Position numbers and translations under genes: made by a program
Notes under the pieces: generated by a model
What the model was told of the DNA's origin: nothing
Database searches by the model: none
The model's input: the letters and a program-made list of their open reading frames with translations, nothing else
DNA from: a virus
Lineage: Duplodnaviria > Heunggongvirae > Uroviricota > Caudoviricetes
Virus record (IMG/VR): IMGVR_UViG_2734482537_000011
Reading direction: 5' to 3' (one strand)
Length of the DNA: 4,528 nucleotides
Shown here: piece by piece, positions 2,470 to 4,528 of the stretch
How positions within the stretch are numbered: the stretch's first letter is position 1
How the letters are laid out: every line of letters begins with the position of its first letter

Positions 2470-3156
2470 ATGACCCCAATAAACATATTTATGACAGTTG
2501 CTGATTTCAAACGGCCCAAATTGGAGCTCCCAAACGGGGCAAACAAACTACTACTGCACTCTTGCTGTGCTCCATGTTCCGGTGAGGTGATGGAGGCGCT
2601 TCAGGCCTCGGGAATCGACTACACCATCTTTTTCTACAACCCGAACATTCATCCTCAGAAAGAGTATTTAATTCGTAAGGATGAGAATATTCGCTTTGCT
2701 GAACAACACGGCGTGCCGTTTATTGATGCTGATTACGACACAGACAACTGGTTTGAACGAGCCAAAGGAATGGAATGGGAGCCCGAACGAGGGATCCGTT
2801 GCACCATGTGTTTTGACATGCGTTTTGAGCGGACAGCGCTGTACGCCGCTGAAAATGGTTTCAGTGTGATCAGCAGTTCACTGGGCATTTCACGCTGGAA
2901 AAATATGCAGCAGGTTAACGACTGTGGGCGGCGAGCCGTCGCGCATTATCCGGGCATGGTGTACTGGGATTATAACTGGCGCAAGCAGGGCGGCTCGTCC
3001 CGTATGATTGAAATCAGCAAGCGCGAAAAATTCTATCAGCAGGAATATTGTGGCTGTGTGTATTCTCTGCGCGATACCAATCTACACCGCAAATCTCAGG
3101 GACGCCCTCTTATCAAAATTGGTCAACTCCACTACGGTAAAGAAGAGAAGGAGTGA
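2470..3156 (+). CDS. queH: Epoxyqueuosine reductase QueH homologue (DUF208); alternative start at ATG 2491
   Basis: N-terminal [11 protein letters not shown] is the hallmark cysteine motif of DUF208/QueH; further Cys pairs at RCTMC and YCGC fit Fe-S cluster ligands. Neither ATG 2470 nor 2491 has an obvious Shine-Dalgarno, so the start is uncertain. Confidence 0.8.
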
Positions 3157-3175: not shown

Positions 3176-3205
3176 GATTGATTTCATATTGGCGAGGTAA
3201 GTAGA
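3176..3205 (+). promoter_or_regulatory. Candidate sigma70 promoter of the hok/mok mRNA (-35 TTGATT, 18-bp spacer, -10 TAGAAT)
   Basis: TTGATT at 3176-3181 and TAGAAT at 3200-3205. The predicted start near 3212 precedes GCGGGTGCTTGAGGCTATCTGC, which resembles the 5' end of plasmid R1 hok mRNA as recalled (GGCGCUUGAGGCUUUCUGCC). Confidence 0.35.
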
Positions 3206-3269
3206 ATGACTGCGGGTGCTTGAGGCTATCTGCTTCAGGCATGAACACCAAAAGGCAGATAGAGAAAAG

Positions 3270-3335
3270 CCCCAGTTAACATTACGCGTCCGGCAAGACG
3301 CTTAACATTAATCTGAGGCCAATTTCATGCTTTGC
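3270..3335 (-). ncRNA. sok: Sok-like antisense RNA (coordinates approximate; promoter on the - strand at about 3342-3370)
   Basis: On the minus strand: -35 TTGCCT (+ strand 3365-3370), 17-bp spacer, -10 TAACCT (+ strand 3342-3347), placed as in R1 hok/sok where the Sok promoter lies inside the mok start region. The element TAAGAGGCTA (+ strand TAGCCTCTTA, 3346-3355) appears conserved with R1 as recalled. The 3' end was not identified. Confidence 0.35.
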
Positions 3336-3539
3336 ACATGTAGGTTAGCCTCTTACATGCCGAAAGGCAAGGAGAAGCAGGCTATGAAGCAGCAAAAGGC
3401 GATGTTAATCGCCCTGATCGTCATCTGTTTAACCGTCATAGTGACGGCACTGGTAACGAGGAAAGACCTCTGTGAGGTACGAATCCGAACCGGCCAGACG
3501 GAGGTCGCTGTCTTCGTAGACTACGAATCCAGGAAGTAA
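3327..3539 (+). CDS. mok: Mok-like reading frame (N-terminally extended, in frame with hok), 70 aa
   Basis: ATG 3327 in frame with hok gives MLCTCRLASYMPKGKEKQA-MKQQK.., parallel to E. coli MokC (MLNTCR...KEKRA-MKQHK..) as recalled. Confidence 0.5.
   Translation: MLCTCRLASYMPKGKEKQAMKQQKAMLIALIVICLTVIVTALVTRKDLCEVRIRTGQTEVAVFVDYESRK
3384..3539 (+). CDS. hok: Hok/Gef family type I toxin, 51 aa
   Basis: MKQQKAMLIALIVICLTVIVTALVTRKDLCEVRIRTGQTEVAVFVDYESRK is near-identical over most of its length to E. coli HokD/HokC as recalled, including the transmembrane segment and conserved Cys. AGGAG at 3370-3374 lies 9 nt upstream of ATG 3384. Confidence 0.88.
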   Translation: MKQQKAMLIALIVICLTVIVTALVTRKDLCEVRIRTGQTEVAVFVDYESRK

Positions 3540-3616
3540 GAGTGACCGGGCGGGGAGCTGATCCCATCCCCGCCCACCTCTGATGTGTCAGGCATCCTCA
3601 ACGCACCCGCACTTAA

Positions 3617-3659
3617 CCCGCCCATCGCTGTGATCTCTCAGCGTTTCGGCGGGTTTTTT
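3617..3659 (+). terminator. Rho-independent terminator of the hok mRNA
   Basis: CCCGCC (3617-3622) pairs with GGCGGG (3648-3653), with an inner CGCTG/CAGCG stem, followed by TTTTTT (3654-3659) and further T-rich sequence. Confidence 0.6.
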
Positions 3660-3679
3660 GTTGTTTATTTCCGGTGAAT

Positions 3680-3707
3680 TTGATTCGCGCACCTTCGCAG
3701 ATAGAAT
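3680..3707 (+). promoter_or_regulatory. Candidate sigma70 promoter (-35 TTGATT, 16-bp spacer, -10 TAGAAT) upstream of the 95-aa ORF
   Basis: TTGATT at 3680-3685 and TAGAAT at 3702-3707, located just after the hok terminator and about 80 bp before ATG 3789. Same hexamers as the hok promoter candidate. Confidence 0.3.
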
Positions 3708-3788: not shown

Positions 3789-4076
3789 ATGAAAATCGAA
3801 GAATTGCGTGAAATTTTTAGTGAAAATGGCCTCTATGCTGTGCGCGTTGAGAATGGAGCGATTGTCAGCCATTGCCGCATTAGATGTTTGCAATCTCAAC
3901 AAAGGAAGAGCGGTGCTGTGTTATTTTATTTTTGTAATGGACTTCTGACGGACGGTTTTATTTTGCGTGAGGACGAATTTGTCACATCATTACGGGTTTT
4001 GAAAGAGATTGGTTTTAAGGCTGGTTTTCTGCTTTTGCTGAAGAATAAACTCATCTACAATCTTGAGCAGGATTGA
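3789..4076 (+). CDS. Hypothetical protein, 95 aa, AT-rich orphan gene
   Basis: ATG 3789 with GGAAGGA at 3776-3782. Intact ORF with no recognisable motif. Composition is visibly more AT-rich than the flanking genes, with several T-runs. Confidence 0.45.
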   Translation: MKIEELREIFSENGLYAVRVENGAIVSHCRIRCLQSQQRKSGAVLFYFCNGLLTDGFILREDEFVTSLRVLKEIGFKAGFLLLLKNKLIYNLEQD

Positions 4077-4114: not shown

Positions 4115-4468
4115 ATGGCACATATACAACTGGTCAAACAAACCTCTTCCGGATTACTTCTCCCGGCGACGCCGGAGAGTTGCGATTTTCTGCATCAAAT
4201 CAAAATAGGTGAGTGGATACACGCAGACTTTAAGCGTGTGTGTAACTACGCATTCCACAAGCGTTTTTTCAAACTCCTGCAACTGGGTTTCGATTACTGG
4301 ACTCCGGTCGGTGGGGCGATCACGCCTCGCGAACGAAAACTGGTGTCCGGTTTCGTTGATTACCTGTGTGAATCAGTAGGCCGGGAACATACGCCAGCTC
4401 TGAGCGAAGCCGCAGAGCAATTGAGGTGTACTGGCAATAGCGGACACTACCATTTGTTCTTTTTTTAA
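4115..4468 (+). CDS. DUF1367-like lambdoid nin-region protein (start ATG 4115, not the TTG at 4073); possibly truncated or frameshifted at its 3' end
   Basis: GGAG at 4104-4107 lies 7 nt upstream of ATG 4115 (MAHIQLVKQTSSGLLLPATPE..). The segment FHKRFFKLLQLGFDYWTPVGGAITPRERKL matches my recollection of the conserved core of DUF1367 phage proteins. The ORF ends at a T7 tract while frame 1 stays open to the window end. Confidence 0.5.
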   Translation: MAHIQLVKQTSSGLLLPATPESCDFLHQIKIGEWIHADFKRVCNYAFHKRFFKLLQLGFDYWTPVGGAITPRERKLVSGFVDYLCESVGREHTPALSEAAEQLRCTGNSGHYHLFFF

Positions 4469-4528
4469 GCAGCCATCTGATGATATTTTTCCCTGAAGGC
4501 TGCCGGGGAGATATTCCCCAGACGAGAG

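Follow-up and report, generated by a model that had tools for sequence, protein, structure and literature searches.

A hok/mok/sok-type cassette of the hokW/sokW subfamily beside queH in an E. coli/Shigella prophage

Genes and features of the cassette

In the window (the whole 4,528-nt stretch of DNA analyzed), which belongs to an E. coli/Shigella prophage, a hok toxin gene, its mok frame and an antisense Sok gene were found together with their regulatory elements (Table 1). As a sequence-only reading of the locus had observed, the cassette adjoins queH, which lies directly upstream (Pfam QueH, E 2e-65); the same queH-hok order was found in an isolated phage. This hok/mok/sok copy is real, complete, ordinary and already known. 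All open reading frames (ORFs), both Shine-Dalgarno (SD) sequences and every pairing element were intact, and all elements that the sequence-only reading had listed for a complete module were recovered at or near their proposed positions, with the defining features present at the sequence level.

Table 1. Elements of the cassette and their positions in the window
Feature	Position	Strand	Details
hok/mok promoter	3178-3207	+	-35 TTGATT 3178-3183, 18-nt spacer, -10 TAGAAT 3202-3207
Predicted full-length mok-hok mRNA	3214-3659	+	~445 nt; 3′ end in U-run 3654-3659
tac	3214-3225	+	GGGUGCUUGAGG; partner fbi in full-length RNA, ucb in open form
Metastable 5′ hairpin, sequesters tac	3216-3242	+	3216-3226 paired with 3232-3242, 11 bp, -16.9 kcal/mol
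Sok antisense RNA	3265-3335	-	~71 nt; 9-nt single-stranded 5′ tail, long hairpin, U-rich 3′ end
ucb / anti-SD	3267-3275	+	AAGCCCCAG; closed partner mok SD, open partner tac
mok SD and Sok target hairpin	3315-3352	+	SD GAGG 3315-3318; GAGGC 3315-3319 pairs with GCCUC 3348-3352 (dcb); loop CUUUGCA 3330-3336
mok frame	3327-3539	+	70 codons, in frame with hok; GAGG 8 nt upstream
Sok promoter	3342-3370	-	-35 TTGCCT 3370->3365; 17-nt spacer with TAAGAGGC; -10 TAACCT 3347->3342
hok toxin gene	3384-3539	+	51 aa; SD AAGGAG 3369-3374
G+C-rich hairpin after stop	3548-3575	+	9 bp; repeat search; fold -20.9 kcal/mol
fbi	3596-3610	+	CCUCAA-C-GCACCCGC; 3′ partner of tac
Intrinsic terminator	3615-3659	+	stem AACCCGCC/GGCGGGUU, then U6; fold -22.8 kcal/mol

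The Hok product matched Pfam PF01848 (HOK_GEF; E 4.3e-23, 81 bits vs. a cut-off of 22) and was identical to HokW at 50 of 51 positions (98%); an identical public sequence is annotated HokD in RefSeq. Alignment with HokW, the Hok of R1 and HokC left 17 invariant columns, the family core being TRK-LCE. Only matches below cut-off were obtained with the NCBIfam Hok subfamily model (55 bits, cut-off 73), and NCBIfam was not used for family membership. The ORF list placed mok in frame with hok, as the sequence-only reading had stated, and translation of mok would therefore give an N-terminally extended Hok. The length and layout of mok were those of annotated mokW, with which it was collinear.

The 5′ part of the cassette (3214-3389) matched Rfam RF01794 (hok/sok) over the full length of the model, whose orientation is the hok sense (117 bits vs. 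a gathering score of 59, E 3.9e-27). The consensus tac stem, Sok-region hairpin and SD/dcb hairpin of the model were almost fully satisfied. Upstream of this match, the hok promoter that had been claimed was present as TTGATT-18-TAGAAT. Its 9/12 consensus matches in the promoter scan were at chance level (0.9 such matches expected, so the pattern is not significant), and its -10 was kept in eight of the nine hokD/W-type homologues. Compared with loci L008, L009 and L021, 11 nt were missing between the -35 and the -10. The transcript most likely begins at G3214, because this position lies 6 nt past the -10, a spacing also seen in an R1-like locus, and because the Rfam model begins there.

The hairpin that follows the hok stop codon had a stem sequence unlike those of the homologues, with pairing kept; by analogy with R1, it likely protects the 3′ end of the processed mRNA. 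The intrinsic terminator contained a lineage-specific 23-nt insertion (3622-3644), which forms an inner 5-bp hairpin, at a place where the homologues carry AACCCGC-UUCG-GCGGGUU. Its atypical 25-nt loop explains why the terminator scan missed 3615-3655, and both terminators were missed owing to their loop or stem shapes; homology and direct folding were relied on instead of the promoter and terminator scans. The inserted loop was also considered as a further anti-SD directed at the hok SD (13/17 positions complementary). This pairing was absent from the MFE structure, seven of its pairs came from the ancestral UUCGGC, and the complementarity is probably due to chance.

Pairing of the mRNA ends and alternative folds

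The repeat search returned TGCGGGTGC (3211-3219) and GCACCCGCA (3603-3611) as a perfect inverted repeat, which the sequence-only reading had linked to fold-back pairing of the mRNA ends. The 9-nt complement was indeed exact, but with a +1 near 3214, T3211, G3212 and C3213 probably lie outside the RNA, and pairs involving these positions were not conserved among homologues. Thus, the helix of the probable transcript comprises 12 bp with one bulged C (pairing probability approximately 1, or 11.9/12 nt, in the full-length fold). In the MFE structure of 3212-3660, UUGAGG (3220-3225) paired on with CCUCAA (3596-3601) past the bulged C3602, giving 14 bp in total. Folding of this transcript yielded a stable 5′-3′ helix with the SD closed (-195.4 kcal/mol, z = -9.46, with none of 100 shuffles reaching this stability), and the energy of the tac/fbi duplex was -26.9 kcal/mol. 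The proposed fold-back was therefore predicted by the MFE fold, and it was supported by covariation among 29 loci.

We considered whether the complementarity could be a chance inverted repeat without regulatory role, accompanying a plain Hok ORF and an antisense RNA. Approximately 0.45 perfect 9-mer inverted repeats are expected by chance in 485 nt (our own estimate), and other 8-nt to 9-nt repeats occurred in the region; the 9-nt repeat taken alone is weak evidence, and specificity comes from its position and extension. Against chance, the pairing extended to 14 bp, and in every intact homologue the fbi complement lay 45-58 nt past the stop codon. Of the 29 loci, 15 had U-A and 12 had C-G at the pair U3217/A3605, an exchange seen over Escherichia, Photorhabdus, Pantoea, Kluyvera and R1-type plasmid loci, and GAGG/CCUC of the window corresponded to GAGA/UCUC in Photorhabdus. 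Paired cells made up 84% of the tac/fbi alignment vs. 29-56% in slid controls. The formal covariation count covers the 8-pair helix 1 only; helix 2 (UUGAGG/CCUCAA) rests on duplex predictions, and MAFFT misregisters it when loci that have the bulged C are aligned with loci that do not. In addition, the equivalent helix of R1 is experimentally established (PMC9841398). On these sequence comparisons, a chance repeat is already refuted at the comparative level, and we regard it as exceedingly improbable.

Shorter RNAs were predicted to fold differently. The metastable 5′ hairpin, which has been described in R1 (PMC9841398), was the MFE structure of the first 35-45 nt of nascent RNA. In RNAs of 60-140 nt, the MFE structure was the open form, in which the tac stem pairs with ucb and the mok SD with dcb, in agreement with the Rfam structure. 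The closed form, with ucb paired to the mok SD (GCC.CAG/CUG.GGC), was present in the full-length MFE structure. The target hairpin was supported by the local fold, the 140-nt fold and the Rfam structure, and the Sok +1 (3335) fell within its loop. RNAs truncated at the 3′ side (ends 3545-3640) folded closed at equilibrium, as for the most part did an R1-like control for which the switch is experimentally established.

The Sok RNA and related loci

The predicted Sok RNA aligned collinearly with sokW as annotated in 933W (L001 2937-3007) and folded at -30.2 kcal/mol (z = -4.97). A Sok promoter had been placed on the opposite strand inside the mok start region, where we found TTGCCT-17-TAACCT. 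With 7/12 consensus matches it was under the scan threshold; the hexamers were read directly and are identical to those of 933W sokW. In Takada 2021, sokW was made promoter-less by a change in the Sok -10 (primer YO-421), and the window has the same unmutated hexamer. The geometry was also that of the Sok promoter of an R1-like locus (TTGCGC-17-TATCCT). The conserved element TAAGAGGCTA, likewise noticed earlier, is the reverse complement of 3346-3355 and occurred in 56 of the 88 fetched loci, across genera and nearly always at one offset from the hok ATG. Its conservation is explained by its content, which is the dcb of the hok mRNA together with the spacer and the first two -10 bases (TA) of the Sok promoter.

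The closest known systems were hokW/mokW/sokW of the Stx2 phages 933W and Sp5 (VT2-Sakai), to which the cassette was 92% identical at the nucleotide level over the stretch running from the -10 through fbi. Identity was complete in tac, fbi, ucb, dcb, the two SDs and the hexamers of the Sok promoter, and the Sok hairpin carried the same 16 extra nt compared with the Rfam consensus. Differences were found in Hok (E50R), in Mok (N3C and V11M), in the -35 with its upstream context, in the post-stop hairpin (longer in the window) and in seven of the 5′-terminal 17 nt of Sok (recognition tail plus target loop). Right after fbi, 933W diverges and does not have the AACCCGC...GCGGGUU terminator of the window. 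The slot also differs: the window copy is early-right (nin-like) after queH, whereas that of 933W is near the right prophage end, on the strand opposite the late genes. Experimentally, hokW/sokW is a toxin-antitoxin system of type I, in which HokW is toxic and sokW neutralizes it from its own promoter (PMC8621323).

The regulatory logic was the same as in hok/mok/sok of plasmid R1. The R1-like layout that had been proposed held for the order of elements (promoter, tac, metastable hairpin, ucb, Sok region, mok SD, target hairpin, dcb overlapping the Sok promoter, hok SD, hok, protective hairpin, fbi and terminator), but not for mok, whose in-frame position is the mokW/mokC arrangement; in R1, the AUG codons of mok (116) and hok (174) are out of frame (PMC9841398). 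The TAGCCTCTTA element was identical in R1 and the window, whereas the Hok proteins were only 45% identical and tac/fbi read GGCGCUU/GAAGCGCC in R1 vs. GGGUGCUUGAGG/CCUCAA-C-GCACCC in the window. The mRNA of the window is predicted to be approximately 45 nt longer than that of R1, and its copy is prophage-borne rather than plasmid-borne.

HokC of the hokC/mokC (gef) locus, where mokC is in frame too, was 78% identical to the Hok of the window. In wild strains, tac/fbi of hokC was weaker (-18 to -20 vs. -26.9 kcal/mol in the window). The weakest complement was that of K-12 hokC (L004; -15.6 kcal/mol), which has IS421 downstream, whereas the window keeps every element. For the E. coli hokD (relF, Qin prophage) type, the fetched L008 protein was 90% identical to the Hok of the window; K-12 hokD itself we take to be without the upstream mok/sok region.

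Proposed control of Hok synthesis and role in the prophage

The sequence elements, predicted pairings, conservation and covariation, together with homology to a tested system, form the basis of the hok/mok/sok assignment. Positions 3178-3659 very probably make up a complete type I toxin-antitoxin cassette that belongs to the prophage (hokW/sokW) subfamily and works as proposed here; for this allele, we infer transcription, processing, toxicity and the trigger in the prophage. With a public hokD label, an Rfam entry for the RNA family and experimental work on a 92%-identical homologue already available, there is little gain beyond annotation; what is filled in for this allele is the previously unannotated mok, Sok and structural elements.

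A constitutive promoter would produce a stable mRNA of approximately 445 nt, on which the 5′ hairpin would conceal tac while the RNA is nascent. Once the RNA is full-length, tac would pair with fbi and the anti-SD would occlude the mok SD; the closed RNA would therefore be neither translated nor bound by Sok. Slow 3′ trimming to the post-stop hairpin would then strip fbi, after which tac would pair with the anti-SD, the mok SD would be freed and the Sok target hairpin would form. The labile Sok, transcribed from the opposite strand (3335->3265), would bind the hairpin loop through its 5′ tail, block translation of mok and hence of hok, and trigger decay by RNase III. When the supply of Sok ends, mok and hok would be translated and the 51-aa Hok would damage the inner membrane.

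By analogy with hokW/sokW, for which Sok has been reported to disappear and HokW to appear upon prophage induction (PMC8621323), the trigger is most likely to be Sok loss at induction; prophage loss and phage infection are other candidates. Silencing of Sok by read-through from the early-right operon was ruled out as a general trigger by the different orientation and position of hokW in 933W. In that subfamily the only direct data favor the phage, with earlier lysis and twofold more progeny after induction (PMC8621323). The main role in the prophage may instead be other than an aid to lysis and release, namely post-segregational stabilization or abortive infection against other phages, the two roles put forward in the sequence-only reading. 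This is a genuine possibility, albeit one we do not favor: hok/sok of R1 stabilizes plasmids and lowers T4 plating (as cited in PMC8621323), and the cassette is a self-contained unit, bounded by promoter and terminator, that occurs in prophage, plasmid and chromosome contexts and travels as a unit delimited by the -10 and the terminator. The sequence discriminates none of these roles, which are not mutually exclusive.

Alternatively, the cassette might be a decaying silent relic, unexpressed or harmless in a degraded prophage. The 11-nt deletion between the ancestral -35 and -10 and the 23-nt insertion in the terminator loop point in that direction, since either could change expression or 3′ processing, as do the chance-level promoter matches, the IS600 insertion in a nearby prophage gene and the rarity of the insertion-bearing allele (2/5426 complete E. 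coli genomes). Pedersen and Gerdes are also said to have found, in 1999, many chromosomal hok loci of laboratory E. coli (K-12) to be inactive. However, the ORFs, both SDs and all pairing elements are intact, and intact hok/sok loci tend to be functional, because losing only Sok in an unregulated way would kill the cell. Where the helices differ from those of the functional hokW, pairing is maintained (U.G to U-A; G-C to G.U in the metastable hairpin); the replacement -35 TTGATT stands at 18-nt spacing and the terminator still folds at -22.8 kcal/mol ahead of U6. A relic is thus improbable, and a functional cassette remains our preferred reading.

Among hokD/W-type alleles, variation within the cassette was by far the highest in a 23-nt island (3319-3341), which spans the 5′ tail of Sok, the loop of the target hairpin and the first five codons of mok. 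Column entropy was 0.81 in this island vs. 0.18 overall and did not exceed 0.1 in the SD, dcb and Sok stem that flank it, and the Sok recognition tail was divergent. Several hok copies can share one genome, with five fetched loci on contig CP178302.1. Tentatively, and with some doubt, we suggest that diversifying selection acts on the hok/sok copies of prophages and favors mutually orthogonal Sok recognition, so that each prophage would have a private antidote and the rare CUUUGCA-loop allele a distinct specificity. The terminator-loop insertion and the promoter deletion might additionally retune the timing of this allele. With its divergent Sok tail and modified terminator, the rare allele is a possible natural variant for studies of cross-talk and 3′ processing.

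Composition of the cassette

The prophage carries a complete cassette of the known hok/mok/sok family, belonging to the hokW/sokW subfamily. The completeness claimed in the sequence-only reading was supported by Pfam, by Rfam model RF01794, by the predicted folds and by 92% identity of the interval to the annotated hokW/mokW/sokW loci of the Stx2 phages 933W and Sp5/VT2-Sakai. This kind of element is already known, and the allele-specific features are minor.

Features of the hok/mok/sok cassette, with strand and basis of assignment
Feature	Position	Strand	Details and basis
hok promoter	3178-3207	+	TTGATT-18-TAGAAT; promoter scan
tac stem (open form)	3214-3221 with 3267-3273	+	MFE of 60-140-nt RNA
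Sok-region hairpin (open form)		+	MFE of 60-140-nt RNA
mok-SD/dcb target hairpin (open form)	3315-3319 with 3348-3352; loop 3330-3336	+	GAGGC with GCCUC; MFE of 60-140-nt RNA
mok	ATG 3327	+	70 codons, in frame into hok; ORF listing of window
Sok +1	3335	-	Collinearity with annotated sokW
Sok promoter	3370 to 3365, 17 nt, 3347 to 3342	-	TTGCCT-17-TAACCT; read from sequence
hok	3384-3539	+	51-aa ORF MKQQKAMLIALIVICLTVIVTALVTRKDLCEVRIRTGQTEVAVFVDYESRK; Pfam HOK_GEF, 81 bits, E 4e-23
Post-stop hairpin	3548-3575	+	9 bp, G+C; repeat search, fold
Terminator	3615-3659	+	Stem AACCCGCC/GGCGGGUU, then U6; repeat search, fold

RF01794 was the sole match in a scan against all Rfam families (3214-3389, plus strand; 117 bits, gathering score 59, E 4e-27, full model length). 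Because the model spans the hok mRNA from its 5′ end to the hok AUG, the match represents the sense-oriented hok leader rather than the Sok strand. Despite the family name, "sok antitoxin", its matches lie on the strand of the toxin, and Sok would be assigned to the wrong strand by automated annotation that relies on it.

The hok -10 and GGGUGCUUGAGG are 6 nt apart; hok +1 was placed at G3214 because this spacing matches that of an R1-like locus (TATGAT-6-GGCGCUUGAGG). Folding of the first 35-45 nt gave an 11-bp hairpin (3216-3226 with 3232-3242, -16.9 kcal/mol), which would be the metastable structure described for R1 (PMC9841398).

As had been proposed, mok is in frame with hok, which is the arrangement of mokW and mokC, unlike that of R1, where AUGs at 116 (mok) and 174 (hok) (PMC9841398) lie in different frames. 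In L003 (544-759), from an R1-like IncFII plasmid, mok is in frame with hok because the leader between the two AUGs is 1 nt shorter than the published R1 coordinates imply. Judging by L003 and R1 proper, the mok frame is evidently variable within the family.

The opposite-strand Sok promoter expected in the mok start region was found there, and the primer for a promoter-less sokW mutant alters exactly the -10 equivalent to TAACCT (PMC8621323). The predicted Sok RNA (71-74 nt) has a free 9-nt 5′ tail followed by a long hairpin (-30.2 kcal/mol, z = -4.97). The supposedly conserved TAAGAGGCTA, the reverse complement of 3346-3355, was indeed present in 56 of the 88 fetched loci, from many genera, nearly all at a constant distance from the hok ATG. 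It serves as Sok promoter spacer plus the first two -10 bases (TA), and also as dcb, the partner of the mok SD in the open form of hok mRNA.

Open and closed conformations

For RNAs of 60-140 nt, the minimum free energy structure was the open form, which is the structure encoded by RF01794. The full-length RNA (3212-3660) folded at -195.4 kcal/mol (z = -9.46), with its 5′ end paired with 3596-3610 (duplex GCGGGUGCUUGAGG with CCUCAA-C-GCACCCGC; 14 bp plus a single bulged C, 12 bp of them inside the probable transcript). In this closed form, the anti-SD GCC.CAG (3269-3275) is paired with CUG.GGC over the mok SD, and the partition function gave the pairing of tac (the 5′ element) with fbi (its 3′ partner) a probability of approximately 1, with the mok SD closed. 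The folding suggested as a check on the module predicted both stable 5′-3′ pairing and SD occlusion. When truncated RNAs were folded at equilibrium, no switch from closed to open was seen, either here or for an R1-like control.

The reported 9-nt complement (3211-3219 with 3603-3611) was exact in an inverted-repeat search, and by itself a perfect 9-mer complement is not significant. The pairing is specific because of its constant offset from the stop codon, its compensatory changes and its contrast with slid controls. Across 51 nonredundant loci, intact copies had the best complement of the 5′ end 45-58 nt past the stop codon. GGGUGC/GCACCC in hokD/W and hokC types is replaced by GGGCGC/GCGCCC in Photorhabdus, Pantoea and the R1 type, and GAGG/CCUC by GAGA/UCUC. 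Aligned independently with MAFFT, 29 loci showed 84% pairing in the 8-pair tac/fbi helix, and sliding the partner by 1-3 columns left 29-56%. At the central pair, 15 loci have U-A, 12 have C-G, 1 has U-G and 1 is unpaired. The outermost two pairs, where some positions fall upstream of the inferred +1, were not conserved, in agreement with a putative transcription start at 3214-3215.

Differences from relatives and the 3′ end

Homology to 933W begins approximately at the -10 and ends right after fbi, and 933W is without the terminator seen here. Hok differs from HokW of 933W at one residue (E50R), and Sok differs from sokW at 7 of its first 17 nucleotides. Compared with most hokD/W-type loci, the post-stop hairpin is longer, and TTGATT has come to 18-nt spacing through the loss of 11 nt between the ancestral -35 and the -10. 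Among 10 distinct hokD/W-type alleles, variation was concentrated in an island (3319-3341; mean column entropy 0.81 vs. 0.18 overall) that spans the 5′ recognition tail of Sok along with the target loop and the initial mok codons; the adjoining SD, dcb and Sok stem had column entropies of at most 0.1.

The post-stop hairpin probably corresponds to the stem-loop protecting processed R1 mRNA (PMC9841398). Relative to most hokD/W-type loci, the otherwise conserved hok terminator carries, within its UUCG loop, a 23-nt insertion (CCATCGCTGTGATCTCTCAGCGT, 3622-3644) that folds into a 5-bp hairpin of its own; just 2 of 5426 complete E. coli genomes have it. Combined with the ancestral UUCGGC, the insertion is complementary at 13 of 17 positions to the hok SD region (3359-3375), probably by chance.

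Role, distribution and genomic setting

HokW is toxic, resides in the inner membrane and is neutralized by sokW expressed from its own promoter; on prophage induction sokW vanishes and HokW is made, and when hokW/sokW is deleted, growth arrest sets in later and phage release falls by half (PMC8621323). This only direct evidence from the subfamily points to a likely role in assisting lysis and phage release once the prophage is induced, rather than in prophage stabilization or abortive infection.

Of the 5426 genomes, 4042 have homologues that span 80% or more of the interval, with a median of 4 matching places in each; homologues also occur in 79 phage records and in many plasmids. Several copies can share one genome (L010, L015, L016, L035 and L067 of the fetched loci are all on CP178302.1). 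Two complete genomes, FDAARGOS_943 and FDAARGOS_944, contain an identical copy, and in them the toxin alone is annotated, as hokD. The gene immediately follows queH in a lambdoid/Rac-like prophage, with the replication genes on one side and the late region on the other, and shares the orientation of its neighbors. The queH-hok arrangement also occurs in the isolated phage HannyBb, between the O-like and Q-like genes, with a 96% identical QueH annotated as hypothetical.

The prophage-borne QueH (epoxyqueuosine reductase, 2470-3156; Pfam E 2e-65) adjoins hok upstream; E. coli's own enzyme is QueG. Just past the hok terminator, a second promoter-like site (3680-3707, TTGATT-16-TAGAAT) carries the hexamers of the hok promoter, and the 95-aa ORF downstream of it (3789-4076) had no Pfam or NCBIfam match. 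An N run (1220-1469) masks the middle of a ydaV/DnaC-like ATPase gene (789 onward), which had weak IstB/DnaA ATPase matches. Collinearity of the window with the FDAARGOS_944 prophage stops after 4421; an end of IS600 (IS3 family) occupies 4422-4528 and disrupts a DUF1367 gene starting at 4115, whose Pfam match covers positions 1-102 of 198 alone.
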